NCBI GenBank assembly: GCA_043803225.1
Contig: JAZDKF010000027.1
Span: 22,406 to 86,405 of the forward strand
Direction of reading: 5' to 3'
Length of the DNA stretch: 64,000 nt
DNA from: Candidatus Beckwithbacteria bacterium
GTDB taxonomy: Bacteria; Patescibacteriota; Microgenomatia; UBA1400; CG1-02-47-37
Shown here: positions 5,527-46,662 of the stretch, one piece after another
Layout of the letters: every line of letters begins with the position of its first letter
How positions within the stretch are numbered: position 1 is the stretch's first letter
Translations under genes and position numbers: made by a program
The notes under the pieces: model-generated
Told to the model about the DNA's origin: nothing
The model's input: the letters and a program-made list of their open reading frames with translations, nothing else
Database searches by the model: none

Positions 5527-6330
5527 ATGAATTTATTTCAAACAGCAGAATATTTACAGATATTTACCAGGCATTTTTGCCAAGAAAAAGACATTGTTGA
5601 GGAGGTATGGGAAAAGTACCAAGGAGGATTAATTTTACTAGGAATGAAGCCGGTGCTTAATGGCCAGGAAGTCAGCGATTACGCTAAGACGGATATAAAA
5701 GATTTACCGAAAGGATTTAAAACAATTCAGCTGGATTATGTCAGGGAGGACTGCCAGACTTTTAATAGCCTACGAGGAGACTCCTTGAAGGTTGAGAAAC
5801 AAGAGGTCGCACCTTTTATTAATTTACCCAAGACCTTCGAGGAGTATTTAACTTCATTAAAGAGAAAGTATAGAAAAGAAATAAAAAGAAAGATAAAGCG
5901 GCTGGAAGAGGTGAAGTATGAAGCGGTGAAAGAAGACAACTTGGCTGAATTTATCCGGCTGCACCGGTTGTCTGATCCGGCTAAGGATAAGTTTATGAGC
6001 GAGCAGATGGCAGATTTTTTTAAGGATATGTTTGAAGCGAAAATTCCCGGCTGGGAGCAGCGACTGGATTTTTTAAAGATAGAAGGAAAGTATGCGGCGG
6101 GAATTTTAAGTTTTGTAAACGAGACAGAGTGGTGGTTGTATAACTCAGGTTTTGATCCGGCTTACAGCTACTTTAGCGCCGGAGTGAATTTAAAGGCATT
6201 AAGCATCAAGCAGGCAATTGAGACGGGGAAGACAAAGTATGATTTTTTAAGAGGCAATGAGCGGTATAAGTATGAACTGGGGGCGAAGGACTTACAGCTA
6301 TATAAGCTTTTACTGAAAAAAGTGATATAA
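5527..6330 (+). CDS. FemAB/BioF2/CelD-like GNAT-fold acetyltransferase (Acetyltransf_6-like).
   Basis: C-terminal 'YDFLRGNERYKYELGAKD' resembles the conserved BioF2/CelD-like motif. Size is ~267 aa. Confidence 0.45.
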   Translation: MNLFQTAEYLQIFTRHFCQEKDIVEEVWEKYQGGLILLGMKPVLNGQEVSDYAKTDIKDLPKGFKTIQLDYVREDCQTFNSLRGDSLKVEKQEVAPFINLPKTFEEYLTSLKRKYRKEIKRKIKRLEEVKYEAVKEDNLAEFIRLHRLSDPAKDKFMSEQMADFFKDMFEAKIPGWEQRLDFLKIEGKYAAGILSFVNETEWWLYNSGFDPAYSYFSAGVNLKALSIKQAIETGKTKYDFLRGNERYKYELGAKDLQLYKLLLKKVI

Positions 6331-6366: not shown

Positions 6367-6866
6367 TGGGAGAACAAGAGAGAACAAGAGTTAAAACAGG
6401 TTTAGCCAGAAGGGTGGATTTAAGCCAGGGAGGTTTATCGTATTCAGAAAGGCAGAGATTTGAACAGGCGGTGGGATTGCTTCAGCTAAATTCTACCGGG
6501 GATATCCAGGACTGGCTGCAAGTAATATTTAGATTGAACAAAGATAAAAGACAATGGTTCACGCTTGATGGAGATATTAGTGTAGAAATGACTCAGTGGG
6601 AAGATCTGAGCCAATCAGGAACTTTTTCGACAATAATTAGGATTCATAATATTTTACTGCCAAGACAAGATAGCAATGTTGTTTGGAAACATTTAGTCAG
6701 GCCAAAGGCAGAAGACCCTAACAAAGGCACTTTAAAATTTATTATTAATTCTAGAGGAGGTTACTGGGCGGCAGTGGAAAAGGGCGTAGTTGAGCAACAA
6801 GGATATAAAACCGACGGTATCGCCACTGTTGAAAATCTAGCGGCAATACTGGCAAAGGTAGAATAA
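6366..6866 (+). CDS. Hypothetical protein (cysteine-free).
   Basis: 166 aa ORF with consistent codon usage and no recognisable motif. Confidence 0.35.
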   Translation: MGEQERTRVKTGLARRVDLSQGGLSYSERQRFEQAVGLLQLNSTGDIQDWLQVIFRLNKDKRQWFTLDGDISVEMTQWEDLSQSGTFSTIIRIHNILLPRQDSNVVWKHLVRPKAEDPNKGTLKFIINSRGGYWAAVEKGVVEQQGYKTDGIATVENLAAILAKVE

Positions 6867-8226: not shown

Positions 8227-9115
8227 ACTAGCGTTGATAACGGCCGGATTTTCCGGAGTGGCGGTATTTTTAAACTCGCTGACAGTTAAGGTAGTTGGAG
8301 ATGCTTTAGTGTTTACGACGATAAAAAATCTAGGGGTAGGACTGCTTTTGCTGGGAGTGTTAATAAGAAAGAAAATTAACTGGGTGGAAGTGAAACAAAA
8401 TTGGAAACAGTTGGGACTGATCGGCATCATCGGCGGATCTTTAGCGTTTTACTTATTTTTTAAAGGTTTGATGCTAACTAGTCCAGTGATGGGAAGCATG
8501 ATTCATAAAACTCTGGTGCTGTGGGTGGGGCTGCTGGGATTTGGAGTATTAAAAGAACGGTTAAACTTAAAGCAGGGAATTGCGCTTGCGGGAGTGTTTG
8601 GGGCCAGTGCCTTAATGGGCGGGTTTAACGGTTGGAGCTGGGGCAAAGGAGAGACAATGATTTTAGCAGCAACGATTCTTTGGGCAGTAGAAAATATTTT
8701 AGCTAAAAAAGTATTGAGGAAAGTAAGTGTGGAAACAGTCGCCGGATCCAGGATGATAGTCGGGTCAATAATTTTATTGGCGGTGACTGTCAGCAGCGGG
8801 AAATTGGGCTTAATTTTAAACTTAAACGGCTGGCAGTGGGGAATGACTTTGGTGAGCATTGGGCTGCTTTCTGGCTATGTTTTAAGCTGGTATAAAGCTT
8901 TGTCATTGGCACCAGTGAGTTTAGTAGGGACGGTGCTTTCTTTAGGGAGCTTGATAACTTCGGGTTTAAATTCGGTCTTTATTACTCATTCTTTATCAAT
9001 CGAGTTGATTTATCAGACTTTGTTGCTGAGCATATTTTCTTACATTTTTGTAAAAGAGGCGCAAAAAAATGCAAGGTTTGTTAAGGTGCAGCCGTTACGG
9101 ATTAGCGCCAAATAA
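8204..9115 (+). CDS. EamA/DMT superfamily transporter (10 TM).
   Basis: Two repeated 5-TM halves typical of DMT/EamA; hydrophobic throughout. Confidence 0.55.
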   Translation: MHYNKGFKLALITAGFSGVAVFLNSLTVKVVGDALVFTTIKNLGVGLLLLGVLIRKKINWVEVKQNWKQLGLIGIIGGSLAFYLFFKGLMLTSPVMGSMIHKTLVLWVGLLGFGVLKERLNLKQGIALAGVFGASALMGGFNGWSWGKGETMILAATILWAVENILAKKVLRKVSVETVAGSRMIVGSIILLAVTVSSGKLGLILNLNGWQWGMTLVSIGLLSGYVLSWYKALSLAPVSLVGTVLSLGSLITSGLNSVFITHSLSIELIYQTLLLSIFSYIFVKEAQKNARFVKVQPLRISAK

Positions 9116-9860
9116 GTTAAAGTATTGCGGTCCGGATAAGAATAAAGAACTAGAAGGATATTTAAAAACCAAGACGACTGATTGGGGTTTGGAAAGGATT
9201 TTAAAAGAGTTTAAAGCAATGCAGCCATACTTGAAATTGATTGCCCGGGAAAATGGGATAGCGGATGAGTTTGATGAGCGGGTAGTAGAAGCATATTGGT
9301 TGGGAAATGAGCTGCTGGATAAAGTGAGTTTGAAAGGGTTTTTTGATCACGCTTTAGGCAAGCTGGATAGGAAAAGTTTAAAGTGGTTTGAAGTAAAACT
9401 GGGACGAGGCGCGAAGCCAAACCACAGTTTCCATGTGTTTAATTTTTGGAAGCGGACAGGATATGTGGCAAGATTACACACAATTGAAACTATGGATAAT
9501 TGCAGGATTTCATGCGGTAAAGTTATTCGGCCTATGCTTGGCAATACGAAATTTTTGCGTGCTCACAGCTATCTGACTGAATCAGATGAGACGCTGCGCG
9601 CGCAAAAATCTGTATTTGCCATCGCTGGCCGAAATTCACACAGCCTACTGGTTAACACAGATAGATTGGTTTATAAGAATGGCAAGCTGGGCTTTGAGCC
9701 GGCGGTTAAAGAAATCAGTTTTTTGGAAGGGAAGTATCATCCGGAGGAGTTAGTGACGTTTCACTGGAATATGGTGTGCGAAAAGATTAATAAAACCCAG
9801 AAGGAAAATTTAGACAAATACACCAGATTGGCTTTGAACCTAGCGAATTTAACGGTATAA
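9069..9860 (+). CDS. Hypothetical protein; its reading frame runs straight through copy 1 of the repeated element at 9547-9610.
   Basis: Continuous 263 aa ORF. The segment 'KFLRAHSYLTESDETLRAQKS' is encoded by the repeat element. No known domain recognised. Confidence 0.3.
   Translation: MQGLLRCSRYGLAPNKLKYCGPDKNKELEGYLKTKTTDWGLERILKEFKAMQPYLKLIARENGIADEFDERVVEAYWLGNELLDKVSLKGFFDHALGKLDRKSLKWFEVKLGRGAKPNHSFHVFNFWKRTGYVARLHTIETMDNCRISCGKVIRPMLGNTKFLRAHSYLTESDETLRAQKSVFAIAGRNSHSLLVNTDRLVYKNGKLGFEPAVKEISFLEGKYHPEELVTFHWNMVCEKINKTQKENLDKYTRLALNLANLTV
9547..9610. repeat. Copy 1 of a ~65-75 nt conserved hairpin element (MITE-like or structured-RNA-like), inside an ORF.
   Basis: 'aaatttttgcgtgctcacagctatctgactgaatcagatgagacgctgcgcgcgcaaaaat'. 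The same flanks are at 20335-20404 and 45948-46025. The central stem is 'atctga'/'tcagat'. Confidence 0.7.
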
Positions 9861-10338: not shown

Positions 10339-10692
10339 ATGATCAAAATTATTGAAATTACCAAATTAAAACCGCATGAGCGGATTAGAAAAATTCATGC
10401 CAGAAAATTATTAAGGCAAATTATTATTGACGGCCGGTTAAAGAAGCCGATTATTGTTGATGGGAAAACAGGGGTAATTCTTGACGGCCATCACCGTTTT
10501 TGGGCAATTGGGCAGTTGGGTTTAAGCGGTATTCCTGCAAGAATAGTGAATTATCAAGATAAAAATATACAAGTAATTGCGTGGAGAAAAGGAGAGAAAA
10601 TTTCCAAAAGTGAAGTAATCAGAGCCGGAATGACAGGAAAGTTGTTGCGGCCGAAAACTTCCAGACATTTAATTCCTAAGGAACGATTATGA
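10339..10692 (+). CDS. Small ParB/Srx-fold protein (ParB-like nuclease/sulfiredoxin superfamily).
   Basis: 'KLKPHERIR...DGHHR' is a ParB/Srx-type motif (compare Srx 'GCHR', DUF262 'DGQQR'). 117 aa. The stop overlaps the start of the following cysteine synthase gene (ATGA). Confidence 0.45.
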   Translation: MIKIIEITKLKPHERIRKIHARKLLRQIIIDGRLKKPIIVDGKTGVILDGHHRFWAIGQLGLSGIPARIVNYQDKNIQVIAWRKGEKISKSEVIRAGMTGKLLRPKTSRHLIPKERL

Positions 10693-11561
10693 AAAATTTA
10701 TTACAAACAATCGGCAAGACGCCTATGGTGAAACTGGAAAGATATTCCACTAAGCGAGTTAAGATTTTTGCCAAACTGGAAGGCAATAATCCGGGCGGGT
10801 CAATTAAAGACAGGATTGGTTTGCGGATGGTCGAAGAGGCGGAAAAGAAAGGAATAATTCAGGGAAGGGAGTTATTGGAGGCGACCAGCGGCAACACCGG
10901 AATTGCTTTAGCGATGATTTCGGCGATTAAGGGATATAAATTTACCGCAGTAATGCCGGAGAGCGTGAGTTTAGAAAGGCGGAAATTATTGACCGCCTAT
11001 GGGGCGAAAATTATTCTGACAGACGGAGCCAGAGGTACTAATTATGCTATTAAAGTGGCTAAAGAAATAATGAAAGAGAATAAAGATAAATACTTGATGC
11101 TGAACCAGTTTGAAAATAAGGCAAATGTTTTGGCTCACTTTGAAACTACCGGCAGGGAGATTATTGAACAGCAGCCGGAAATAACTCATTTTGTGGCGGG
11201 AATGGGCACGGGCGGGACATTGATGGGCGTGGGGAAAAGATTGAAAGAGTTTAAGGCAAATATTCAAATAATCGGAGTTGAACCAAGAGCCGGGTCCAAA
11301 ATACAGGGCTTAAGAAATATGAAAGAGTATGTGCCCAAGATTTTTAAGGAAAAAAGGCTGGATAAAAAACTAGTAATAAAAGAAGATAAGATTGCGTTTG
11401 AGTTAATGAAGGATTTATTTAAAAAAGAAGGTTTATCGGTAGGAATTTCTTCCGGGGCCGGGCTTTGGGGAGCGATGGAGACAGCGAAAAAAATTAAAAA
11501 AGGAATAATTGTGACTATTTTTCCAGACAGGGGAGACAGGTATCTAAGCAATTGGCTATAA
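10689..11561 (+). CDS. cysK: PLP-dependent cysteine synthase family (CysK/CysM; O-acetyl- or O-phosphoserine sulfhydrylase).
   Basis: 'NPGGSIKDRIG' carries the PLP-Lys. 'SGNTGIALA' and 'GTGGT' loops are typical of the tryptophan-synthase-beta superfamily CysK/CysM. Confidence 0.75.
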   Translation: MKNLLQTIGKTPMVKLERYSTKRVKIFAKLEGNNPGGSIKDRIGLRMVEEAEKKGIIQGRELLEATSGNTGIALAMISAIKGYKFTAVMPESVSLERRKLLTAYGAKIILTDGARGTNYAIKVAKEIMKENKDKYLMLNQFENKANVLAHFETTGREIIEQQPEITHFVAGMGTGGTLMGVGKRLKEFKANIQIIGVEPRAGSKIQGLRNMKEYVPKIFKEKRLDKKLVIKEDKIAFELMKDLFKKEGLSVGISSGAGLWGAMETAKKIKKGIIVTIFPDRGDRYLSNWL

Positions 11562-11569
11562 TTTAACTA

Positions 11570-11923
11570 ATGAAAGTATCAGTGTTTGGGAATAAAGATT
11601 TAATCGAAGACAGGGCGGCAGTGGAGTTAATTCCGTGGCTGAAAAATAAATATCCGAAGGCGGAGATTAAAATTGAAGATCCAACTGAAGGATTGAAGCC
11701 GCCGGAAGACGGCAATTGGGTAGTGGTGGATGCGTGCCAAGGAATTAATAAAATAACCGAGTTTGATAATTTAGACCAGTTTGAAGCGAAAAGAAGAGTT
11801 TCGGTCCATGACTATGAAGTGGTGATGGAATTGAAGTTGATATTGAAGCTAGGCAAAGTGAAAAGCTTAAAGGTAATCGGGGTGCCGATGAAAGTTATTC
11901 GTCCGGGGTCTGGCCAAAAATAG
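11570..11923 (+). CDS. [NiFe]-hydrogenase maturation endopeptidase-like protein (HycI/HybD family, short form).
   Basis: 'VFGNKDLIEDRAA' (GN...[DE] metal ligand), 'VVVDAC' (DA motif), 'SVHDY' (His ligand) and a C-terminal 'VIGVP' (compare 'lIGVe'/'GIQP'). Spacing is similar to HycI/HybD. Confidence 0.45.
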   Translation: MKVSVFGNKDLIEDRAAVELIPWLKNKYPKAEIKIEDPTEGLKPPEDGNWVVVDACQGINKITEFDNLDQFEAKRRVSVHDYEVVMELKLILKLGKVKSLKVIGVPMKVIRPGSGQK

Positions 11924-12524
11924 TAATGGTGGTGCCGGGGTTGTCAGCTGACGCATAGATGCTGCGCTGGCCCTGCAGATCGGGTTGGGCCCAATAAAAG
12001 AGCTGGGCAACTTCTTCGGTTTTCATATTAATACAGCCGTGAGACATGGGGTGGCCGAAGTTGTCATGCCAGTAAGTGCCGTGAAGACCAAAACCGCGGG
12101 ACTTGGGAACTTCATCGCTATAAAAGAACATGGTGTAGGGGACATTGGGGAGGTAGTAGTAGGTATTTAGGGCTTTGGAACCGCCTTCCATTTTAGTATA
12201 GCGAAGCTTGGTCCAGATTTGAAAAGTGCCGGTGGGAGTCCGACCCCATTTTCCGGAAGAAATCAGAAAGTTATAAACAAGATTATTGTCTTCGTAGGCA
12301 TAGAGGCGTTGATTAGTCAGATCGATCTCGATTCTTTTATCAGCAGTGTTTTGACCCAGAACTATAGGTGGAAGGGTGTCGGTTTGAGCCAGGGGAGAAG
12401 ATACAGTCAGATTATTGAAAATTGCCTGAGGCGGAGTGGGATCAAAATCAGCGGAGAGGTGATTAAGGTCGAGGTTTTTTTGGCGGGAAAAAAGCAGGGT
12501 TAAAAAGACGATGAAGAGTTTCAT
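11895..12524 (-). CDS. L,D-transpeptidase (YkuD domain), secreted.
   Basis: Catalytic 'HGTYWHDNFGHPMSHGCINM' (His...SHGC). Start placed at 'MKLFIVFLTLLFS' (signal peptide). The ORF track allows 12569. Confidence 0.7.
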   Translation of the reverse strand: MKLFIVFLTLLFSRQKNLDLNHLSADFDPTPPQAIFNNLTVSSPLAQTDTLPPIVLGQNTADKRIEIDLTNQRLYAYEDNNLVYNFLISSGKWGRTPTGTFQIWTKLRYTKMEGGSKALNTYYYLPNVPYTMFFYSDEVPKSRGFGLHGTYWHDNFGHPMSHGCINMKTEEVAQLFYWAQPDLQGQRSIYASADNPGTTITIFGQTPDE

Positions 12525-13828
12525 TGCTTCCAGTTTATCTTTAAAAAGTGGGAGGCACAACTCATACAAGGATCATAAGCCCTGATTAAGACTTCGATTT
12601 CGTGTTCAAGTTCGGCCTTGAGGTTAGCGTTAAGGGTTTGGTTTTTGAGTTTGTTTTCAACCAGAATTTTGATGTCGTTTTGGATGTTTAGCTGGTTTTG
12701 GCCGGTGGGAACCAGGATTTCTGCATCTTTAACCAGATGATTTTCAATCGAGAGGTGGTGGTAGAGAATTCCCCGGGGAGCTTCAACTACACCGAAGCCT
12801 TCTCCGGAAGAGAGCTGGGATTTAACTAGGGGTTCGGGTTGGAATTTAGCTGAGGGGAGAATGGATAAAGTGTCGTCGATGGCATTTAAGATTTCAATAG
12901 CTTGGGCGAGATTGTTGTGATAGAGGTTGTGGGAGGGAAAAAGTTTTAAAGCAGCAGCAGCGCCGACTTTGGTTTGAGAATTTAAGGAGTTTTTATTGAG
13001 ATTGATTCGAGCCAGAGCGCCAGTAAAGTAAGGTCGGTCTTTATAGGTATAGGCAGAAGCCTGGGAGTACGGCAGGGCAAGGTGGTGGAGTTGGGAGCGG
13101 TAGTTATTTTGATGAATGCAGAGGCCGTCAGAACTGCAGATTTCACCGACAAGGTAAGAATAGTCGGGGTTTTTGTGGGATAAGTAGGGAGTGGAATGAG
13201 TTTGGGTTAAAGGGCAGTCGGCAAAGATGTGGATTAATTTTAAGACGGCCGGTCTGACAGCCTGGAATTTGGCAATGACTGGTTGGATGGTTTGGGGGTT
13301 GGGAAGCTGAGTAAAGCCGCCAACCTGGGGCAGGGGGGCATGGACCGAGCGGCCGCCGGCAAGGATAGAGAGTTGGTTGCCGGCATCTTTGACGTCAAAA
13401 GCATCGTGGACCAGCTGATGTTGTTTAGGGTCAGAGTCGTTAAAGTCTAAAAGGGAGTTCTTTTGAAATAAATCGGGAAGGACAAAGAGGTAAAGATGGA
13501 GGGCATGGTCGCGGATGATCAGGCCGTTGATAATCAGACGACGCAGGAGCATAGTTTGAGCCGAGGGGGTAATTTTTAAAGCGTTTTCCACGGCTTCAAT
13601 CGCGGCGAGGATATGGGCGTTGCTGCAGGTGCCGCAGATGCGGGCGAGAAGGGTAGGGGCGGCCAGGGCGGCTTTGCCGACAACTGCCTGAGTGTAGAAG
13701 CGTTTGTATTCGGTAATTTTAAAGTGGCATTTGGTGACTTGGCCATCCTGGATGGATAGGTCCAAACCAGCAGCACCCTCGATTTTGGAGATTTCTTCAA
13801 GTGATAGGTCTAAATTTATTTGATGCAT
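12521..13828 (-). CDS. [NiFe]-hydrogenase large (catalytic) subunit.
   Basis: N-terminal 'RICGTCSNAH' (RxCGxCxxxH) and C-terminal 'DPCMSCASH' (DPCxxCxxH) Ni-Fe ligand motifs. An 8-residue extension ('FLKINWKQ') follows the His, consistent with endoproteolytic maturation. Confidence 0.75.
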   Translation of the reverse strand: MHQINLDLSLEEISKIEGAAGLDLSIQDGQVTKCHFKITEYKRFYTQAVVGKAALAAPTLLARICGTCSNAHILAAIEAVENALKITPSAQTMLLRRLIINGLIIRDHALHLYLFVLPDLFQKNSLLDFNDSDPKQHQLVHDAFDVKDAGNQLSILAGGRSVHAPLPQVGGFTQLPNPQTIQPVIAKFQAVRPAVLKLIHIFADCPLTQTHSTPYLSHKNPDYSYLVGEICSSDGLCIHQNNYRSQLHHLALPYSQASAYTYKDRPYFTGALARINLNKNSLNSQTKVGAAAALKLFPSHNLYHNNLAQAIEILNAIDDTLSILPSAKFQPEPLVKSQLSSGEGFGVVEAPRGILYHHLSIENHLVKDAEILVPTGQNQLNIQNDIKILVENKLKNQTLNANLKAELEHEIEVLIRAYDPCMSCASHFLKINWKQ

Positions 13829-18244: not shown

Positions 18245-18999
18245 AGGTTGTCAACTTAAAAGTTAAGGCAGAAGGGAAAGAAGTATTAAAAGGGGTAAAT
18301 TTACAGGTGGGGGTTGGGGAGACGGTGGCTTTAATGGGGCCAAACGGCAGCGGGAAAAGCAGTTTAGCTTACAGTTTGTTGGGACTGCCTAATTATCAAG
18401 TGAGTGAGGGAAGGGTGAGTTTGGAGGGAAAGGATTTGTTTAAAATGTCAGTAACCGAACGAGCCAAAATAGGTTTGTTTTTGGGCTGGCAGCAGCCAAT
18501 CGGAGTCAAGGGTGTCAGTTTGGAGCAGTTGCTGAGAACAGCGGTAATGAGCTGCAAGAATGCGGCTTGTGAGCGGACGGGACAGGCGAAAAAATGTTTC
18601 CAACTGGATGAGTTTAGAAGAGAGTTGAACAGGAAAGTTAAGCTGTTAAAGATTGAACCAAATTGGTTAAACCGGTCGATAAATGTGAAGTTTTCCGGCG
18701 GGGAAAAGAAAAAACTGGAAGTACTGCAGCTGTTAATGTTAAAGCCAGCTTTGGCGATCTTAGATGAGCCGGATTCAGGCTTGGACATTGATAGTTTGCG
18801 GGTAGTCAGCCGGGGGATTGTTGAGGCAAAAAAAGAAAACCCAAAACTAGGATTATTACTGATTACTCATTATCAACGGCTGTTAAAGCAGGTAAAACCA
18901 GACCGGGTGGTGGTAATGAAGGCGGGGCAGATAGTTAAAGAGGGAGGGTTAGAATTGCTGGTGAGGTTGGAAAAGGAGGGGTATGCAGGGTTTGAATAG
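18235..18999 (+). CDS. sufC: SufC Fe-S cluster assembly ATPase.
   Basis: Walker A 'GPNGSGKSSL', signature 'FSGGEKKK' and Walker B 'ILDEPDSGLD'; ~250 aa. Confidence 0.8.
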   Translation: MLLEVVNLKVKAEGKEVLKGVNLQVGVGETVALMGPNGSGKSSLAYSLLGLPNYQVSEGRVSLEGKDLFKMSVTERAKIGLFLGWQQPIGVKGVSLEQLLRTAVMSCKNAACERTGQAKKCFQLDEFRRELNRKVKLLKIEPNWLNRSINVKFSGGEKKKLEVLQLLMLKPALAILDEPDSGLDIDSLRVVSRGIVEAKKENPKLGLLLITHYQRLLKQVKPDRVVVMKAGQIVKEGGLELLVRLEKEGYAGFE

Positions 19000-20308
19000 A
19001 GCAGTAGTTGAAGTGATTTCTAAACAAAAACAAGAGCCGGCGTGGATGAGGCAGAAGCGGTTTGAAGCCTTAGAGGTGTTTGAAAAAGCGGCTTGGCCGA
19101 GGTTTGGGATTGATCAAAAAGAGCTTGATTTGGAGAAAATAAATTATTTTAACAGTCCAAAAGATTTAAAAAAGAAAAACTGGAGTCAAGTCGATAAAAA
19201 GATAAAAAAAACTTTTGAGCGGCTGGGAATTCCCCAGGCAGAAAGACGGGTGTTGGCCGGAGTCGGAGCCCAATGGGACAGTACAATGGTTTATCAGAAT
19301 TTTAAGCAAAGACTAAAAAAGCAGGGAGTGGTTTTTGGCGATATGGATGAAGCAGTAAAAAAGTATCCGCGGCTGGTTAAAAAATATTTTATGACCCAAG
19401 CGGTAACCATCAATAACAACAAGTTCAGCGCGCTTCACGGAGCAGTGTGGAGCGGAGGCAGTTTTGTTTATGTGCCCAAAGGGGTAAAGGTTAAAGAGCC
19501 GGTGCAGGGATATTTTTGGCTGAATTTAGAGCGCGGCGGACAGTTTGAACATACTATAATAATTGCCGAAGCAGGGGCGCAAATTCATTATATTGAAGGC
19601 TGTAGCGCGCCGAAGTATTCGAGCCAGGCGTTACACAGCGGAGTGGTGGAGATTTTTGTGGGAAAAGGGGCGAAAGTCAGGTATTCAACCATACAGAACT
19701 GGACTAAAAATATTTACAATTTGGCAACCAAGCGGGCAATCGTGGAAACAGACGGAACAATGGAGTGGGTGTCGGCTAGTTTGGGAAGCAAGCTAACCAT
19801 GGTTTATCCCTGCAGTGTGTTAAAAGGCGACCGGGCGAAGAGCGACCATTTAAGTTTAAGTTTAGCGGGCAAGGGGCAGGTGTTGGATACAGGCGGCAAG
19901 GTAATTCATGCGGGTAAAGATACCGGTTCGAATATTGTATCTAAGTCGATCAGCCAGGCCGGTGGCAAAACTGTTTACCGAGGATCAGTGAAGATTTTAC
20001 CAGGGGCAAAAGGGGCTAAAAGTTCTGTTTCCTGCGAGTCATTGATTTTAGATAAACGAAGCCAGGCGGTGACAGTTCCTAAAATGGAGGTTTTAGAGAA
20101 CGAGGTGGTAGCCATGCACGAAGCGAAAACCGGAAAGATAGCTGAAGAGGAATTAAATTATTTAATGAGCCGGGGGTTAGCTGAAGCCGAGGCGATGGCA
20201 ATGATTGTGAACGGGTTTATGGAGCCGGTGGTGAAACAGCTGCCTTTAGAATATGCAGTGGAAATGAACCGGCTGATTGAGATGGAGATGGAAGGGAGCG
20301 TGGGATGA
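18983..20308 (+). CDS. sufB: SufB/SufD family Fe-S cluster assembly scaffold (single sufBD-type gene).
   Basis: Beta-helix-type repeat region with conserved 'GSF...VPKG' and a C-terminal helical domain. Lies immediately after sufC. Confidence 0.65.
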   Translation: MQGLNRAVVEVISKQKQEPAWMRQKRFEALEVFEKAAWPRFGIDQKELDLEKINYFNSPKDLKKKNWSQVDKKIKKTFERLGIPQAERRVLAGVGAQWDSTMVYQNFKQRLKKQGVVFGDMDEAVKKYPRLVKKYFMTQAVTINNNKFSALHGAVWSGGSFVYVPKGVKVKEPVQGYFWLNLERGGQFEHTIIIAEAGAQIHYIEGCSAPKYSSQALHSGVVEIFVGKGAKVRYSTIQNWTKNIYNLATKRAIVETDGTMEWVSASLGSKLTMVYPCSVLKGDRAKSDHLSLSLAGKGQVLDTGGKVIHAGKDTGSNIVSKSISQAGGKTVYRGSVKILPGAKGAKSSVSCESLILDKRSQAVTVPKMEVLENEVVAMHEAKTGKIAEEELNYLMSRGLAEAEAMAMIVNGFMEPVVKQLPLEYAVEMNRLIEMEMEGSVG

Positions 20309-20334
20309 TAGAATATAACTTGTTTATTACTCGA

Positions 20335-20404
20335 CAAACAAAATTTTCTGCGTGCTCACAGCTATCTGACTGAATCAGATGAGACGCTGCGCGCGCAAAA
20401 ATTT
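20335..20404. repeat. Copy 2 of the conserved hairpin element, in the sufBD-sufS intergenic spacer.
   Basis: 'caaacaaaattttctgcgtgctcacagctatctgactgaatcagatgagacgctgcgcgcgcaaaaattt'. Nearly identical to copy 1. Confidence 0.7.
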
Positions 20405-20426
20405 ATTTGTCTCGTTAAACCTACCT

Positions 20427-30258: not shown

Positions 30259-31292
30259 GAAGCAGGGATTTTGTTAATCAAGGCGACGAGTCAGAGCAAG
30301 TTAAAAAAAAACGAATACGCAAGACGATCGGTGAAGAAGGCAACCGGAAGCAGACCTTGATTGGTTTACTAGTAACAGTTGGACTGGGACTGGCTTTTTA
30401 TTTACCGCCACAGATTAAACAGTGGTGGCAGGGAATGGATTTAAATATTAATTTGGGCAAAGAAAGTGAAGTCATCAGGATTGAAAAACCAGTAGGCGAT
30501 AAAAAGAATGTTTCGGAAGTGGTGGGGTTTAAAGTGGAGATTAAACAGAAAGAGGATGCCGAGACGGTGGTGAAACAGATGCTGGGAGATTTGGCGGGCA
30601 GTTATGGACTGTATGTAGAAAAGTTGGCTGGGGGAGAGAAGTTTGGGATTAATGAGGGAGAAGTGTTTACGGCAGCATCAGTGATTAAGCTGCCGATTTT
30701 AGTTGTTTACTATCAGGCAGTCGATAAAAATCAGCTTGACCCTAAAACAAAATATGTTTTAGCCGAGGAAGATAGATTGGTTTATGGCACCGGCAGCATG
30801 CAGAATCAGCCGAACGGAACTAAGTTTAGTTATCAGCGGATTGCTTTACTAGCGGCCAATGAAAGCGATAATATGGCAGCTGAGCTGTTAATTAAGTTTT
30901 TAGGCGGAGAAACCAAAGTGCAGGCGAAGTTAACCGCCTTGGGTTTAAAAGACACTAAGATTAAAGAAAATAAAACCACCCCGAAAGAAATAGCTGATTT
31001 ATTGAAGCGAATTTATCAAGGTGGGTTGTTAAGCCAGAACAGCAGGGAAGAATTAATGGATAATTTAACCAAGACAATCTTAGAAGATAGAATTACTGCC
31101 GGAGTGCCCAGTAATATCAAAGTGATTCATAAGTTTGGCAGCGAAGGCGGGGTAGTGAACGACTGCGGAATAGTTGAGGCTAAAAATCCTTATACAATCT
31201 GCGTATTATCAACAGGAGTCAACGACGGCGAGGCGATGGAGTTATTGCCTAAGATCAGCCGGGTGATTTGGGAGTGGGGTAGTAGAGACTAG
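30243..31292 (+). CDS. Class A beta-lactamase-like serine hydrolase (PBP/beta-lactamase fold), membrane-anchored.
   Basis: N-terminal TM, then 'FTAASVIKLPIL' (SxxK), 'ANESDNMAAELL' (SDN) and 'HKFGSEGG' (KTG-like K[TS]G). Confidence 0.55.
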   Translation: MDEDLRSRDFVNQGDESEQVKKKRIRKTIGEEGNRKQTLIGLLVTVGLGLAFYLPPQIKQWWQGMDLNINLGKESEVIRIEKPVGDKKNVSEVVGFKVEIKQKEDAETVVKQMLGDLAGSYGLYVEKLAGGEKFGINEGEVFTAASVIKLPILVVYYQAVDKNQLDPKTKYVLAEEDRLVYGTGSMQNQPNGTKFSYQRIALLAANESDNMAAELLIKFLGGETKVQAKLTALGLKDTKIKENKTTPKEIADLLKRIYQGGLLSQNSREELMDNLTKTILEDRITAGVPSNIKVIHKFGSEGGVVNDCGIVEAKNPYTICVLSTGVNDGEAMELLPKISRVIWEWGSRD

Positions 31293-33649
31293 TTTGTGGT
31301 GGCGCCGGTAAGGATTTTATCGCGCTCTTCCTGGTCTTTTTTAGCTTTTTCTTCCTGAATGGCCTTAATTTGTTCAGCTGAGCAGGCTTGTTTCGGCTCA
31401 GTGCCGGGAATAAAGTATTCAAGCTTAGAGGGGCAGCCTTCGCAGCTGAGTTGACCGGTAATTGAGCAGATGTTGACTTTAATTAAGTCAGTTGGAGGAG
31501 TAAAGACATGGGGAGGCTGGTCATTAAGTAAAAGAGTCATGATTTTATTCCAGATAGGCGAGGCGCCGGTGATACCGGAAGCAACTTGGGACATCGGAGT
31601 ATTATCATTATTGCCAACCCAGACAATGGTGAGAAAATCAGTGGTATAGCCAATAGTCCAGTTGTCCCGCTTATCATTAGTAGTGCCGGTTTTAACCGCA
31701 ACTTGATGGTTTAAGACATTAAGATAGCTGCGGCTGCCGAACGCGGGAATGCGGGCGATCGGATCAGCCAAAATATCGGTTAAGATAAAGCTGGTAGCAG
31801 GGAGGAGAATGGTTTCCGGGTTGCAGTAAAGATGTTTTTGGGCGGCAAAGGCATCAGGTTGGAGATCAGCTTGACGGTCAGGAAGATTGATGGCAGGGAA
31901 GTCGTCGCAGTTAAAGTCCAATAGGACTTTGTTTTTAGCATCAGTGACTTTAAGAATCGGGTGGAGATTAACCCGTTTTCCCTGATTGCTTAGGGTAGCG
32001 TAGACTACGGCCATATCGGTCATGGTGACTTCAGCGCCACCCAGAGTCAGAGACAGGCCGTAGCGTTCCGGCTGATTCCAGGTAGAGATGCCCATTTTTT
32101 TACCTTGTTCGATCATTTTTTCGACGCCATAGCTGGCTAATACTTTAACCGCCGGAACATTGTAAGAATTAGCCAGAGCGTTTCTTAAGGTAACCGGGCC
32201 ATTAAAGTTGCCGCTGTAGTTGACCGGAGAGTAAGGTTTGGAACCGGGAATATCGTAAGTAACCGGACTGTCTTGGATAATTGAGACGGCAGTAAAACCA
32301 TGTTCTAAGGCGTAGGCATAGTTAACCGGTTTAATGGAAGAACCGGGTTGGCGGAGAGCCGTAGTTAGATTAACCTGGCCGTCCCGGTCGACGTCAAAGT
32401 AGTCCCGGGAGCCGACCATGGCCAGGATTTCGCCGGTTTTGGGATTAGTGATCAGGGCGGCACCATTAGTAATATGTAAGGGAAAAAGTTGGTTGATTTC
32501 TTGGGTAACAATAGTCTGAACCTGTTCTTGTAGATTAAGATCAAGCGAAGTGATTACGGTCAGGCCGCCTTGCTCAACCGTAGTTTCGCCAAATTCCTGA
32601 GCGAGCAGGTCTTTAATATACATAACAAAGTGAGGGGCGCGGATGTTTTGATATTGGGGGGCGAGGCGAATTTTTTGTTGTTTAGCCAGTTCGGCTTCCT
32701 GCGGAGCAATAAATTTTTCTTCAACCATCCGGTTTAAAACTTGGTGTTGGCGGTAAATAGAAAGATAGGGATTGGGTCCGAAAGGGGAGTAAGTGGTCGG
32801 CGAAGCTGGTAAACCGGCAAGCAGAGAGGCTTCGGCCAAGCTAATGTTTTTAATAGATTTGCCAAAGTAGGTTTGGGCTGCCTGCTCAGCACCATAAGCG
32901 GTGCCGCCGTAGGAGACCTGGTTAAAATACATTTCCAGAATTTCGTCTTTAGAAAAAAGCAGTTCAGTTTCTATGGTTAAAATTAGTTCTTTGAGTTTGC
33001 GAATTAGGGTCCGTTCAGGGGTAAGCAGGGCATTTTTAACCAATTGTTGGGTAATGGTAGAACCGCCTTGGAGTTGTTGGTTAAAAATAATTTGATTTAA
33101 GGAGCGAAGAATACCGGACCAGGAAATACCTTGGTGATGATAAAAACGGCTGTCTTCGATAGCCAGGGTCGCTTGGATAAAGTGCTGAGGCAGTTGGTTT
33201 AAGCTGATTAAGGATCGGTTTTGATCTTTGTAAAAAGTAAACAGGAGATTTTCATAACGGTCATAGATTTTAGTGGAGAGGCTGGGCGGACGATTGATCA
33301 GATCAGTAGGGCTGGGAAGGTCTTTTACGATAAAGAAGTAGAAAAAGCCGGAGAAAATTAAAATCGACGAACCAATTAGGACAGTTCGTTTAGAGAAAGA
33401 CAAACGGGGCAGTTGAAAGCGGGGTAGTTTAATGCCCGGAAGTTTTAATTGCCTAGTTTTAACTTTAGGCAGTTTGAGTTTGATTTCCAGAGAGGTAAGA
33501 AAACGATAGGCAGAGCGAAAGTTTTTGATAAATACCACAAGGCTGTTGAAAAACAGCTTGATTGCAAAAAAGATTGATTGGTAAGTGGTCCGACCGATAG
33601 TTTCCAGAATCAGGCCAGGCCAGCGCCAGAATTTGACCATGGGGGGCAT
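31289..33649 (-). CDS. Class A penicillin-binding protein (PBP1A-type: GT51 transglycosylase plus transpeptidase).
   Basis: GT51 'AIEDSRFYHHQG' and 'GGSTITQQLVKN'. Transpeptidase 'PGSSIKP' (SxxK), 'NSYNVP' (SxN) and 'KTGTT' (KTG). N-terminal TM. Confidence 0.8.
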   Translation of the reverse strand: MPPMVKFWRWPGLILETIGRTTYQSIFFAIKLFFNSLVVFIKNFRSAYRFLTSLEIKLKLPKVKTRQLKLPGIKLPRFQLPRLSFSKRTVLIGSSILIFSGFFYFFIVKDLPSPTDLINRPPSLSTKIYDRYENLLFTFYKDQNRSLISLNQLPQHFIQATLAIEDSRFYHHQGISWSGILRSLNQIIFNQQLQGGSTITQQLVKNALLTPERTLIRKLKELILTIETELLFSKDEILEMYFNQVSYGGTAYGAEQAAQTYFGKSIKNISLAEASLLAGLPASPTTYSPFGPNPYLSIYRQHQVLNRMVEEKFIAPQEAELAKQQKIRLAPQYQNIRAPHFVMYIKDLLAQEFGETTVEQGGLTVITSLDLNLQEQVQTIVTQEINQLFPLHITNGAALITNPKTGEILAMVGSRDYFDVDRDGQVNLTTALRQPGSSIKPVNYAYALEHGFTAVSIIQDSPVTYDIPGSKPYSPVNYSGNFNGPVTLRNALANSYNVPAVKVLASYGVEKMIEQGKKMGISTWNQPERYGLSLTLGGAEVTMTDMAVVYATLSNQGKRVNLHPILKVTDAKNKVLLDFNCDDFPAINLPDRQADLQPDAFAAQKHLYCNPETILLPATSFILTDILADPIARIPAFGSRSYLNVLNHQVAVKTGTTNDKRDNWTIGYTTDFLTIVWVGNNDNTPMSQVASGITGASPIWNKIMTLLLNDQPPHVFTPPTDLIKVNICSITGQLSCEGCPSKLEYFIPGTEPKQACSAEQIKAIQEEKAKKDQEERDKILTGATTN

Positions 33650-33680
33650 TATAACCTATAATGTCAGAAAAAGGGAGAGG

Positions 33681-35855
33681 TTATTTTAGATTAATAGTGT
33701 AGGCAGGTTCGGTGATTTTGCCTTTATCGTCGATGGGTTTGGGACAGTCGAGACAGTAATCGGTTTGCACCGGATCGGAAAGCAGAAGATGATCCTGCAT
33801 TTCTAAGTTTTCCGTGACCCCGGGAAGAGGCGGATGGTTGGTGGTTTTATCAATCCAGACGCCTTTTTTTAACTGAGGTTCAATTCCCGGCTCTTGGCCT
33901 TTAATAAAGTATTCAAAGCGAGTTTCGCAAGGGGAGTCGGGGTTAGGGCGGTAACCAGTCAAAGAGCAAACAGATAGACCGACAACAGTTTCCGGTTTGG
34001 CCGGCCATTCGTCCGGCTGATCAGCCAGCAGATAGGTCATCAGGTCGTGCCAGATAGGGGCGGCGCCGGAGACACCGGAAACCAACCAGGGAGACATCGG
34101 CGTATTATCGTTGTTGCCAGTCCAGACAGCGATTAAAAATGAGGGAGTATAGCCGATAGTCCAGTTGTCCCGAAGATCGTCAGTGGTGCCAGTTTTAACT
34201 GAGACAGCATGGTTTCTAATGACTAGTTCTGAGTTAGAACCAAAAGCTTGAGACCGAGCATTGTTGTCTAAAAGTATATGAGAGATAAGGTAGGCAATTT
34301 CCGGAGAAATAGCTTTAGTACCGCTGGGCAGTTGGTTTTCCAGATCAATTTGTTCCAAGACTTCGCCAGTGTAGGTCTCGACTTTTAGGATCGGAGTCAA
34401 GTCGACTTTTAAACCGGCATTGGCAAAGACGCCAAAAGCTACGGCCATGTCAACCATTTTAACTTCACCGCCGCCAAGGGTTAAAGACAGGCCGTAGCGG
34501 GACGGGTCGGTAAAGGTGGTAATGCCCATAGCTGAAGCAGTGGCAATCATTGATTCAACTGAGTTGGCGGCGAGCATTTTCACTGCGGGAATGTTAAAAG
34601 AGTTGCCGAGAGCAAAACGCATTTGGACCGGGCCGTGGAAAGTAGCGTCATAGTTTTTGGGACAGTAGCTTCTTTGGCCGGGCACATTAAAACAAACCGG
34701 AACATCCAAAAACATAGTCGATGGGGTAAAGCCTTTGGCTAAACCGACAGCGTAGTTAATCGGTTTGATAGATGAACCAGGCTGGCGCAGGCGGGTAGTA
34801 ACGTTAACATTACCGTCGATAGATTCATCGAAGTAATCTTTGGAGCCGACCATGGCCAGAATTTCTCCGGTTCTGGGTTTGGTAATCAAAGCGGCGGCGT
34901 TGGTGACATTGGCTTTGGCTAACTTAGCGGTTTCGGTGGCAATAGCCGCTTCGGCAAACTGCTGGAGGTTTAAATCCAGGGAAGTGGTAACCCTAAGGCC
35001 GCCTTTTTCAACTAAGGGCAGGCCGTATTTATCGACTAAGATTTCTTTAATATAAAGAGAAAAATGGGGGGCAAGGATCGATTGAGTCGGGGGCTTAAGC
35101 TCAAGCGGTTGGTTTATAGCTGAGTCAAATTCTTCCCTAGAAATGTATTTATCTTCCAACATCCGACTTAAGACTTGCTGCTGGCGGCTTTTAGCCAGAT
35201 CCGGGTTAGCGCCAAAAGGGGAGTAGCGCGTGGGGGCTTGGGGCAGTCCGGCCAGCAGGGCGGCTTCAGCCAAAGTCAGCGCTTGGGCGCTTTTGCCAAA
35301 GTAGGTTTGAGCGGCCTGTTCAATGCCATAACTGGTGCCGCCGTAAGGGATGTGGTTTAAGTACATTTCCAGGATTTCTGTTTTGGAGTAGCGGACTTCG
35401 GTGGCAAAGGAAAGAATGGCTTCTCTTATTTTTCGCTTAATGGTCCGTTCCGGGGTAAGCAGGGTGGTTTTGACCAGTTGCTGGGTAATGGTGGAGCCGC
35501 CCTGGAGTTTTTGTTTAAAGATGGTGTTTAAAAAAGCCCGGGTGATGCCTTCCCAGGCAAAACCATGATGTTTATAAAAGTTTTTGTCTTCAATGGCGAT
35601 GGTGGCTTGTTTAATATAGTCGGGAAGGTCGGTTAACTTGATTGGAGTGCGGTTTTGGTCAGCGTAGATTTCATAAAGCAACTGGCCGTGGCGATCCAGG
35701 ATTTTGGTGGAAACGGGAAAAGCATCAGAATTGAGTTTTCCCGGAGAAGGCAAGTCATTGAAAATAATGATTAAGCCGACGAGAAAGATTAAAGCAGCGC
35801 CGATGATAAAGACCGCCTGGCGGGGGTGAGTTTTAAAAAAGGGTTTTTTGACCAT
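33681..35855 (-). CDS. Second class A penicillin-binding protein paralog (PBP1A-type).
   Basis: 'AIEDKNFYKHHG', 'GGSTITQQLVK', 'PGSSIKP', 'NSFNIP', 'KTGTT'. N-terminal TM. Confidence 0.8.
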   Translation of the reverse strand: MVKKPFFKTHPRQAVFIIGAALIFLVGLIIIFNDLPSPGKLNSDAFPVSTKILDRHGQLLYEIYADQNRTPIKLTDLPDYIKQATIAIEDKNFYKHHGFAWEGITRAFLNTIFKQKLQGGSTITQQLVKTTLLTPERTIKRKIREAILSFATEVRYSKTEILEMYLNHIPYGGTSYGIEQAAQTYFGKSAQALTLAEAALLAGLPQAPTRYSPFGANPDLAKSRQQQVLSRMLEDKYISREEFDSAINQPLELKPPTQSILAPHFSLYIKEILVDKYGLPLVEKGGLRVTTSLDLNLQQFAEAAIATETAKLAKANVTNAAALITKPRTGEILAMVGSKDYFDESIDGNVNVTTRLRQPGSSIKPINYAVGLAKGFTPSTMFLDVPVCFNVPGQRSYCPKNYDATFHGPVQMRFALGNSFNIPAVKMLAANSVESMIATASAMGITTFTDPSRYGLSLTLGGGEVKMVDMAVAFGVFANAGLKVDLTPILKVETYTGEVLEQIDLENQLPSGTKAISPEIAYLISHILLDNNARSQAFGSNSELVIRNHAVSVKTGTTDDLRDNWTIGYTPSFLIAVWTGNNDNTPMSPWLVSGVSGAAPIWHDLMTYLLADQPDEWPAKPETVVGLSVCSLTGYRPNPDSPCETRFEYFIKGQEPGIEPQLKKGVWIDKTTNHPPLPGVTENLEMQDHLLLSDPVQTDYCLDCPKPIDDKGKITEPAYTINLK

Positions 35856-37317: not shown

Positions 37318-37844
37318 TGATGAAAAAGATTTTATTGGCTTTAGTTTTAGTGTCGGCGGCAGTGGCCGAGAGACTGTGGTTTGATTTGGGGCCGAATATT
37401 GAGCTAATAACGACCGTAAGCGTAATCGCTTCAATTTATTTAGGCAAGCGCTGGGGGGCGGGAGTAGCAGTAATGGCTTTAGTCTTGTCAGACTTAGTGA
37501 TCGGCAATACAATGATACTGCTTTTTACCTGGAGTGCATTCGGACTGATTGGTTATCTGGGACGATGGTTAAAAGGTAAGGCTTGGTGGGTGGCCGGGGG
37601 TTATGGTTTGGGAGCATCGTTGTTTTTTTACTTTTACACTAATTTTGGAGTTTGGCTGATCAGCAGTTTATATCCGCATAATTTAAAGGGTTTAGTGGAT
37701 TGTTATGTGATGGGATTGCCGTTTTTACGCTTACAGGCAGTGAGCAACCTAATAATATTGACAGGAACATTAGCAATTATTAAATATTTAACTTCAAGTA
37801 TTTGGGTAAGCCGGTGGAAGTCCGGCACTGTGCCGCAACTGTAA
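37317..37844 (+). CDS. Small polytopic membrane protein (5-6 TM); possible ECF-type substrate-capture (S) component.
   Basis: 175 aa, hydrophobic throughout. TGATG start overlaps the preceding stop. No ATPase or T component is adjacent. Confidence 0.3.
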   Translation: MMKKILLALVLVSAAVAERLWFDLGPNIELITTVSVIASIYLGKRWGAGVAVMALVLSDLVIGNTMILLFTWSAFGLIGYLGRWLKGKAWWVAGGYGLGASLFFYFYTNFGVWLISSLYPHNLKGLVDCYVMGLPFLRLQAVSNLIILTGTLAIIKYLTSSIWVSRWKSGTVPQL

Positions 37845-37909
37845 ATCGTTTTAAACGATAAGTCAGAAAACCAGATTTGAAGTAGTTTTCTCCCGAGCAG
37901 GAGGCGAAT

Positions 37910-41975: not shown

Positions 41976-41976
41976 T

Positions 41977-45935: not shown

Positions 45936-45947
45936 GGAATAACTCGG

Positions 45948-46025
45948 CAAACAAAATTTTCTGCGTGCTCACAGTTATCTGGCTAGCTAAAGCTACCAGA
46001 TGAGATGCTGCGCGCGCAAAATTTG
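45948..46025. repeat. Copy 3 of the conserved hairpin element, downstream of nrdJ paralog 3.
   Basis: 'caaacaaaattttctgcgtgctcacagttatctggctagctaaagctaccagatgagatgctgcgcgcgcaaaatttg'. Same flanks as copies 1 and 2. The central stem sequence differs but base pairing is preserved. Confidence 0.7.
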
Positions 46026-46044
46026 TATACTGAGTTATTAATTT

Positions 46045-46662
46045 ATGAAAATTATACTGGCCTCGGATTCGCCACGGAGAAAGCAGTTACTGTTTTTGCT
46101 GGGATTAAAATTTACAGCCGTCAGCCACAAAATTAAAGAGGAAGAGTATGTGGGTTCAGATGCCGAAGACTTAGTTGGACAGTTAGCAATTGCAAAAGCG
46201 ACTTCGATCGAGCCGCCAAAAGGAGGAATAGTCATTGGTTCGGATTTAGTGGTGGTAAAAAGAGATAGATTCATGGGTAAGCCAAAAGATTTGCAGCAAG
46301 CAAGAGAATATTTAAAACTTTTGTCTGGCAAAACTCATTCGGTTTTTTGCGGCGTTGCCGTTGCCTCTAAAAACAAAGTTTTGATGAGTGTGGCGAGAAG
46401 CTGGGTGGGGATGAAACGCTACAATGAAAAAATTATTGAGGCATATATTAACAAATTTCAGGTATTGGATAAGGGTGGGGGATATGCCATTCAATTTGAG
46501 CTGCCGGGGTATGGCAGTTTAGTCGAAACTTTTGGAGGTGGAATTACCACGATTATCGGTTTGCCGTTGGAGTATTTAGTTAATTTACTCAAAGAGTTTG
46601 GAGTCAAAGTTGATTCTAACTGGCGGGAAAAGTGTAAAATAGAAACAGGTTATGAGAACTAA
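46045..46662 (+). CDS. maf: Maf-family nucleoside triphosphate pyrophosphatase.
   Basis: 'MKIILASDSPRRKQLL' N-terminal Maf motif. ~200 aa. Confidence 0.75.
   Translation: MKIILASDSPRRKQLLFLLGLKFTAVSHKIKEEEYVGSDAEDLVGQLAIAKATSIEPPKGGIVIGSDLVVVKRDRFMGKPKDLQQAREYLKLLSGKTHSVFCGVAVASKNKVLMSVARSWVGMKRYNEKIIEAYINKFQVLDKGGGYAIQFELPGYGSLVETFGGGITTIIGLPLEYLVNLLKEFGVKVDSNWREKCKIETGYEN

Follow-up and report, generated by a model that had tools for sequence, protein, structure and literature searches.

How does a 263-aa open reading frame of a Candidatus Beckwithbacteria genome come to have a long hairpin in its middle, and does it represent one gene or two? A preliminary description of the 64,000-nt stretch of DNA analyzed here (the window) placed a hairpin element at 9547-9610 within this ORF, and proposed either that a palindromic element has inserted in-frame and is tolerated as a peptide, or that an intergenic element separates two shorter genes which the ORF call has merged. 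The ORF (9069-9860) indeed runs without a stop codon across 9547-9610, where its translation reads ...GNTKFLRAHSYLTESDETLRAQKSVFA.... The features of the region, with copy 1 as a member of a repeat family that we term A-type, are as follows:

9069..9860, + strand: host gene, DUF6390 family protein, 263 aa (Pfam PF19927, E = 6.6e-43)
9526..9633, + strand: full paired region, consisting of copy 1 and an outer 'shell' stem TTCGGCC...GGCCGAA (RNAfold)
9536..9623, + strand: copy 1 (c1), A-type, in-frame (covariance model R1, 90.2 bits, E = 6e-18, full length 1-89)
9551..9558, + strand: left arm TTTTTGCG, without the bulged C of the canonical TTTTCTGCG (sequence comparison)
9556..9609, + strand: core, 100% identical to copy 2 at 20349-20402 (blastn, 54/54)
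residues ~156-185: coding content of copy 1, MLGNTKFLRAHSYLTESDETLRAQKSVFAI (translation)

For the copy 1 segment, folding gives a long hairpin of -38.1 kcal/mol (z = -5.3), equaled in stability by none of 200 shuffles, and RNAfold of 9520-9640 gave -51.8 kcal/mol. A hairpin repeat is therefore present where it was first placed, but the proposed size of 64 nt is too small, since the covariance model extends it to 9536-9623 and the pairing to 9526-9633. An exact core of 49 nt occurs at two places, 9556-9604 and 20349-20397, where shuffled sequences predict none. The single-nucleotide difference in the left arm that had been pointed out is likewise real: copy 1 reads TTTTTGCG and copies 2 and 3 (c2 and c3) read TTTTCTGCG, the extra C of which forms a bulge in the stem.

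Several observations show that the ORF is a single gene. The Pfam family DUF6390 (PF19927) matches it in two stretches, the better of which covers residues 2-155, and the product is 100% identical to an NCBI "DUF6390 family protein" of a Candidatus Beckwithbacteria MAG. Most of the 671 DUF6390 homologs are 226-244 aa long, and the genes in 80 DUF6390 loci taken from species-representative genomes mostly have ~243 codons. An alignment of 37 homologs is conserved on both sides of the insert, with 44 invariant columns from M1 to N260, and the linker at the insert site comprises 46 residues here and 9-13 in most relatives. The insert is thus in-frame as proposed, but larger than the ~21 aa initially assumed: compared to the shortest orthologs, 37 aa are extra (linker of 46 versus 9 residues), an excess over the 226-aa orthologs that fits the ~108 nt of the paired region, and overall we estimate its length at about 30-37 aa. 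A peptide such as AHSYLTESDETLR would span the insert junction in the DUF6390 protein.

An AlphaFold model of the protein, based on the 37-sequence alignment, has a mean pLDDT of 77.6, with values below 50 at residues 159-171 and 175-187 and of at least 90 in the flanking blocks. The poorly predicted insert lies between the confident strands E148-156 and E191-203, which form one sheet. Because pLDDT drops below 50 between two confident strands, we interpret the insert as a loop at a beta-turn, and it is predicted to occupy a surface position that the fold tolerates.

That the ORF call joins two shorter genes over an intergenic element is rejected as extremely unlikely in light of these data. 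All that favors it beforehand is the intergenic location of the remaining two copies in the window, whereas DUF6390 is a single family of ~226-244 aa whose element-free orthologs continue unbroken across the site, both halves of the ORF are matched by the Pfam model, and the predicted structure is one fold with the strands on either side of the insert in a sheet. The other proposal, a palindromic element that is carried in-frame as a tolerated peptide, is supported: in DUF6390 relatives that lack the segment the protein runs on unbroken, the segment is one member of a dispersed repeat family, and this family is also found in-frame in MnmA and in an ATP-grasp-like gene.

A-type is a dispersed, non-coding, imperfect-palindrome repeat of ~85-97 nt in Beckwithbacteria-like Patescibacteria, with the consensus GACTCGGCATACGAAATTTTCTGCGTGCTCACAGC - variable apical hairpin - GAGACGCTGCGCGCGCAAAAATTTGTATTGCCTGCGTC. 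The other two copies in the window are:

20328..20415, + strand: copy 2 (c2), intergenic (R1, 94.4 bits)
45941..46036, + strand: copy 3 (c3), intergenic, diverged (R1, 74.2 bits)

According to the Pfam matches of the neighboring genes, copy 2 starts 19 nt past SufBD (18983-20308) and lies ahead of SufS (ATG at 20427), and copy 3 starts 5 nt past the third of three tandem ribonucleotide reductase genes (43680-45935) and lies ahead of Maf (46045-46662). Copy 3 has both arms in common with copy 1, and its apical stem is longer and carries a compensatory A-U to G-C change. A DNA-pattern scan of a metagenome collection yielded 21 loci, and the covariance model R1 was built from 16 copies. Among the window, the loci of relatives and the metagenome contigs, R1 recovers 18 distinct sequences, which score 74-103 bits in one orientation and ~20 bits when the opposite strand is read. 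Besides the three copies in the 64-kb window, two copies each were found in loci L095, L102, and L108. A search with R1 of those 76 of the 80 DUF6390 loci that come from distant Patescibacteria relatives (L016-L091, 1.17 Mb) gave no match.

In the A-type alignment 95.6% of the cells are paired, both sides have changed in 11 of the 29 pairs, and none of 500 shuffles reached the same level; slid-register controls were 33-56% paired. As the alignment was fitted to the R1 model, these pairing figures are biased toward the specified structure. The apical modules plainly differ between copies, yet they stay paired. Rfam 15 contains no family that accounts for the element: for copy 1 there was no match at the gathering threshold and none that is credible at E <= 10 (the best was a microRNA model with 15.8 bits versus a threshold of 93 bits), and for copy 3 as well as the in-gene and downstream copies of L001 there was none at E <= 1. 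Judged by eye, hammerhead, twister and other ribozyme cores, integron attC sites, and an SRP-like motif were dropped as their core motifs are absent, and an intrinsic terminator was dropped as the GC stem is not directly followed by a U-tract. A concatenated 66-aa query of the element-encoded peptide retrieved from the protein database only P0121, a 103-aa ORF with an element-derived segment that is probably spurious. The papers searched included reviews on MITEs and on Rickettsia palindromic elements, but no description of such elements in Patescibacteria.

The search pattern (CTGCGTGCTCACA...GGCTGCGCTCGCAG) is also fitted by a GC-rich (67%) hairpin-like sequence on four contigs, L097 (12874-12940), L099, L109, and L112 (5372-5438), one of them labelled as plant metagenome. 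This sequence reaches only 19 bits with R1 (E = 0.2) and is either a chance match or a very distant A-type relative; the four matches were left out of the family count.

Several further features were noted. The longest ORF of SufS begins at an ATG inside copy 2 (20379), and an in-frame ATG follows at 20427 just past the element; the latter is the more plausible start, and gene callers may over-extend starts into A-type repeats. The ribonucleotide reductase paralogs upstream of copy 3 (40071-45935, + strand) are 634, 582, and 751 aa long, with an ATP-cone in the third only. Approximately 2.2 kb upstream of them lies an AdoCbl riboswitch (37779-37910; Rfam, 58.5 bits), which is directly followed by a 527-aa ORF without a Pfam match and with internal repeats (38708-38783 and 38939-39014). 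On the - strand, 31289-35855 encodes a tandem pair of class A penicillin-binding proteins (Transgly and Transpeptidase domains), paralogs that are ~75% identical over repeat blocks. Outside the window, locus L004 of a related genome contains a SufB gene with an intein (10689-12629; Hint, Intein_splicing, and LAGLIDADG matches in Pfam).

In-gene copies are not confined to DUF6390. The DNA-pattern scan revealed A-type copies in two further genes:

L095 12070-12157, sense: A-type in MnmA (tRNA 2-thiouridylase domains)
L108 2159-2246, sense: A-type in a 514-aa ATP-grasp-like protein
L110 4154-4239, sense: A-type in the 510-aa ortholog of the L108 protein, at the same position

As they were found by DNA pattern, these metagenome copies are not biased for ORF integrity. 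All three are free of stop codons and are read in the frame of copy 1 (...TK[FS]...DETLRAQ...), so that DUF6390, MnmA, and the ATP-grasp-like protein each harbor a sense, stop-free A-type copy in one common frame; these genes make up 3 of the 14 independent sites. The MnmA site is filled in L095, empty in L110, and contains a centre-deleted remnant (STRHTKFS) in L108, and the ATP-grasp-like site is filled in L108 and L110 and empty in L095.

Comparison of the in-gene copies shows how the frame is kept. The left arm is read as KFSACSQLSG if the C is present and as KFLRAHSYLT if it is absent, and because of these two frames the encoded peptide is conserved in one half only. An apical segment of either 12 or 13 nt brings the reading back into frame. 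Copy 1, with its TTTTTGCG arm and a 13-nt apical segment (CTGACTGAATCAG), has a total length that fits the reading frame, and the same combination of missing C and 13 nt is found in L110; L095 and L108 combine the C with 12 nt, and all of them are in-frame. The intergenic copy 2 has both the C and 13 nt, and would be out of frame inside a gene. Thus, copy 1 is partly held in frame by its single-nucleotide difference, since the missing C is compensated by the 13-nt segment.

The same data bear on whether the element might be excised like an intron, or bypassed in translation, to yield a protein without the insert. A very stable hairpin in a coding region would suit such a scheme, and nothing further speaks for it. 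By contrast, all in-gene copies are stop-free and compatible in length, even the three that came solely from the DNA-pattern scan, and frame shifts inside them are compensated, the apical segment measuring 13 nt where the C is missing and 12 nt where it is present; a removed element would be under no such constraint. As there is also no match to a ribozyme or intron family, we regard excision or bypassing as very unlikely. Given the intact ORF, copy 1 is most likely read through and translated.

When was the DUF6390 site filled? We compared the DNA of ten DUF6390 orthologs in 13 loci. Most DUF6390 relatives lack the segment, as a lineage-specific insert would have it, but many of the closest orthologs carry a related hairpin with a different interior at the position of copy 1, which argues against one insertion in this genome. 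One interior, B-type, has the form GCTCAATCGTTTGCGACTCC...CTCGCCAGACATCTT, C-type is a further kind, and R1 detects three of the orthologous inserts weakly, at 22-34 bits; viral contigs scanned for the A-type and B-type cores gave no match. Within the outer shell TTCGGCC...TGGCCGAAAT, the interior is A-type in the window and B-type in L001, L004, L113, and L114, and almost nothing is left in L010; L003 and L008 have A-like arms around a B-type core. In a tree of DUF6390 calculated without the linker, long inserts are patchily distributed, with P0020 and P0021 among short-linker relatives. Since many of the closest orthologs contain related inserts at this position, the site appears to have been occupied early and/or repeatedly rather than once, with exchange of interiors. 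The arms of copy 1 resemble those of the orthologous L003 and L008 hairpins and its core is that of copy 2 from its own genome, which suggests that the interior of copy 1 was converted or replaced from this sister copy.

The inserts of L001 and L004 have a common nucleotide sequence that is read in different frames, PQQLRRAQSFATP versus ATATASGSIVCDS, before the proteins rejoin at LRATFAVGRN. As the nucleic acid is conserved while the reading frame differs, the insert peptide is a passenger.

Related modules also occur outside the DUF6390 coding region. Directly after the DUF6390 stop codon, L001, L003, and L008 contain a full A-type copy, L010 only a left arm (CGACTCGGCATACGAAATTTTCTGAGTGCC, 5714-5745), and the window genome a 10-nt spacer without a copy. 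In L013, a more distant relative with 53% identity, an intergenic hairpin downstream of DUF6390 (10770-10815) contains the B-type apical module of L008, CTCCGACGCTTCGGTCGGAG, and a fragment at 13310-13334 matches the right arm of the L006 C-type. As they are present intergenically in L013, B- and C-type modules are not limited to the DUF6390 gene.

In L009 (1290-1340) and L011, 228-aa short alleles were found whose first 450 nt are ~100% identical to the insert-bearing L008 and L001, respectively. The linker in these alleles, ACCCATTCGACTTCGCTCAGGGT, is similar to CCCCTTCGACTGCGCTCAGGGT, which forms the apical loop in the L003 in-gene hairpin (6520-6560), with the apex kept and the arms gone, a pattern that one simple deletion does not account for. 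The apex of the short alleles may represent the ancestral linker, or the assemblies may be chimeras of strains.

Such near-identical N-terminal halves with different linkers (L008/L009 and L001/L011) could reflect strain mixing, and the window itself stems from a MAG, which raises the question whether assembly has mis-joined a repeat into the DUF6390 gene. Related hairpins, however, occupy this very codon position in no fewer than nine distinct DUF6390 genes from NCBI, ENA, JGI, and Logan assemblies, all of these inserts are in-frame, and their flanks are conserved, so that the probability of an artefact is close to negligible.

Taken together, we consider it highly probable that copy 1 represents a palindromic repeat with present or past mobility, which inserted or was regenerated at a loop where DUF6390 tolerates it, and that its translation yields a passenger loop. 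According to this model, an A-type copy would sit in DUF6390 at the turn between two beta-strands, nested in an older hairpin shell. Its length and frame would leave the ORF open, and the ribosome would read through to produce a disordered surface loop of ~30-37 residues, the sequence of which would be a by-product of the DNA. The repeat may have spread as a mobile (MITE-, RPE-, or REPIN-like) element or by recombination between copies, and a c2-like copy may have supplied the interior of copy 1 by replacement or conversion, the loss of one C restoring the frame. The compensated stems, and cores that are better conserved than the coding flanks, are not obviously expected of a decaying selfish insert and weigh against this model.

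No autonomous parent element or transposase was found in the element-bearing loci, and a tblastn search for IS200 TnpA in ~0.3 Mb of these loci (a weak test) detected nothing. The copies are flanked by AT-rich, mutually complementary sequences (ATTT...element...AAAT) without clear direct repeats; imperfect direct repeats are present only at the MnmA site and at the junction of the NiFe hydrogenase small and large subunit genes, and the loci compared include no filled/empty pair with near-identical flanks. Because neither a transposase nor a parent element nor a clean target-site duplication was found, we infer mobility only from the dispersed copies and from presence/absence at orthologous sites. 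Among the latter, the hydrogenase junction is filled in L006 and L094 and empty in L003.

Details of this junction are of interest by themselves. Where the element is absent (L003), the two subunit genes overlap. The small-subunit ORF of L006 enters the element, from which its last ~13 residues and its stop codon are derived, and L004 retains a remnant of only 12 nt (GCGCAGGCAAAT).

The elements show a pronounced strand polarity. At each of the 14 independent sites (23 loci), the G-rich strand is the one that carries the element in sense orientation, with skews from +0.11 to +0.42. GC skew is uniformly very strong over window positions 1-64000 (+0.26 to +0.35 on the + strand), ~85% of the window genes (ORFs of at least 150 aa) are on the + strand, and related loci resemble the window in both respects. 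With respect to the neighboring genes, 11 sites are in sense orientation, one is antisense, and two lie between convergent genes; most intergenic copies are located 1-25 nt past a stop codon. The antisense site is the hydrogenase junction (L006 6926-7011, L094 5347-5432, and L107 13881-13966), where the element is still on the G-rich strand, and this single case hints that orientation tracks the replication or majority strand and not local transcription. The fold energies of the two strands are about equal (mean difference of 1.3 kcal/mol), so that no RNA-strand signature is seen.

This polarity, together with the conservation of the hairpins, could indicate that they are functional cis-acting structures under selection, acting in mRNA stability or translation, as a protein-bound DNA site, or as a strand-polar signal. 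Such a role overlaps with the model of a mobile repeat. Among four orthologous B-type hairpins within the gene, double compensatory changes are seen at four pairs; L001 and L113 are 89% identical over the insert and 96% in its core bins, compared to 71% and 66% for the coding flanks; and the A-type arms are nearly alike even where the DUF6390 proteins of the genomes share only 52-69% identity. These three observations, the G-rich-strand orientation at 14 of 14 sites, and the position of most intergenic copies shortly after a stop codon speak for selection. On the other hand, there is no clear RNA-strand signature, the inner structures of A-type and B-type differ, copies decay by internal deletion (L010, MnmA in L108, and the hydrogenase junction in L004), and many orthologs lack the element. 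Moreover, template switching from arm to arm or gene conversion between repeats can mimic compensation and concerted evolution without any function, and orientation is confounded with gene direction because ~85% of the genes are on the G-rich strand. Conservation, compensation, and polarity thus fit selection on a structure or binding site and mechanistic homogenization (template switching, gene conversion) alike, and we see selection on the structure as a tentative and somewhat unlikely reading. A further, more speculative and rather improbable reading is a hitherto undescribed type of strand-oriented element of ultra-small-genome (CPR) bacteria that targets, or is regenerated at, the apices of existing hairpins; this would give rise to nested in-gene hairpins, the structure of which would be actively maintained through an RNA or DNA function or through single-strand, replication-coupled copying, and would not decay as ordinary selfish DNA does.

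Compared with known repeats, the family of copy 1 appears RPE- or MITE-like, a likeness that does not imply membership in any named family. Rickettsia palindromic elements (RPE) are ~100-150 bp long and occur between genes as well as in-frame within genes, with 19 of 44 sites in genes (Ogata et al. 2000, as cited in PMC10969869 and PMC2229807). The Rickettsia gmk gene has been expressed both with and without its insert. Like RPE, A-type is a short palindromic repeat with a predicted long stem-loop that is found both intergenically and in-frame in conserved genes of a small-genome bacterium, where an extra peptide in one recurring reading frame is tolerated. In both cases the inserts are compatible with the protein fold, the A-type insert lying in a loop modeled with low confidence. 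In contrast to RPE, whose hosts are Alphaproteobacteria, A-type is found in Patescibacteria and is shorter (85-97 nt); the two are likened by features and not by sequence. Furthermore, the A-type peptide is conserved in one half only, the in-gene share is smaller (3 of 14 versus 19 of 44 sites), and A-type copies differ far less from each other, have mosaic or nested interiors, and follow a strict strand orientation.

Features typical of MITEs are also apparent: A-type is below ~300 bp and too short for a transposase gene, its arms pair end to end as terminal inverted repeats over 29 pairs, copies are dispersed (in the window, L095, L102, and L108), and presence/absence is seen at orthologous sites (ATP-grasp, MnmA, the hydrogenase junction, and DUF6390). 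With the 107-bp form of the Correia/NEMIS elements and with ERIC, which are MITEs (PMC2229807), it has in common the small size, the non-autonomous nature, the end-to-end pairing into one stem-loop, the many copies with frames open for in-frame fusion, and the mostly intergenic location close to gene ends. Unlike these elements, A-type has no TA or other clear target-site duplication and no cognate insertion sequence was found; in addition, its stem runs into copy-specific pairing flanks (ATTT...AAAT, GAC...GTC, AGC...GCT).

A-type also resembles REPINs in forming a hairpin from two inverted arms and in its long-term persistence and conservation across related species, and single-strand, replication-linked mobilization could explain its orientation bias. 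REP sequences and REPINs are mobilized by RAYT transposases, which are IS200/IS605-like Y1 enzymes, and a REPIN forms a hairpin of ~70-110 nt from two inverted arms, each itself a small palindrome. REPINs are almost exclusively extragenic, whereas A-type is intragenic at 3 of 14 sites. The weak tblastn test of the element-bearing loci (~0.3 Mb) revealed no RAYT/IS200-like gene.

In-frame palindromic repeats in genes are already known, and in conserved genes they are best known from Rickettsia; what is new here is the lineage, the recurrence in three genes, the nested and mosaic architecture, and the strand polarity. The Patescibacteria also have very small genomes, and to judge from their case, 'selfish' peptide inserts that the host tolerates may be a recurring feature of genome reduction. 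For annotation, it means that in these MAGs the repeat, and not a new domain, accounts for length differences of 30-40 residues in conserved proteins and for some starts or C-termini that are extended. Finally, the combination of polarity, mosaic interiors, and compensated stems may make the family useful for studying the spread and persistence of hairpin repeats.
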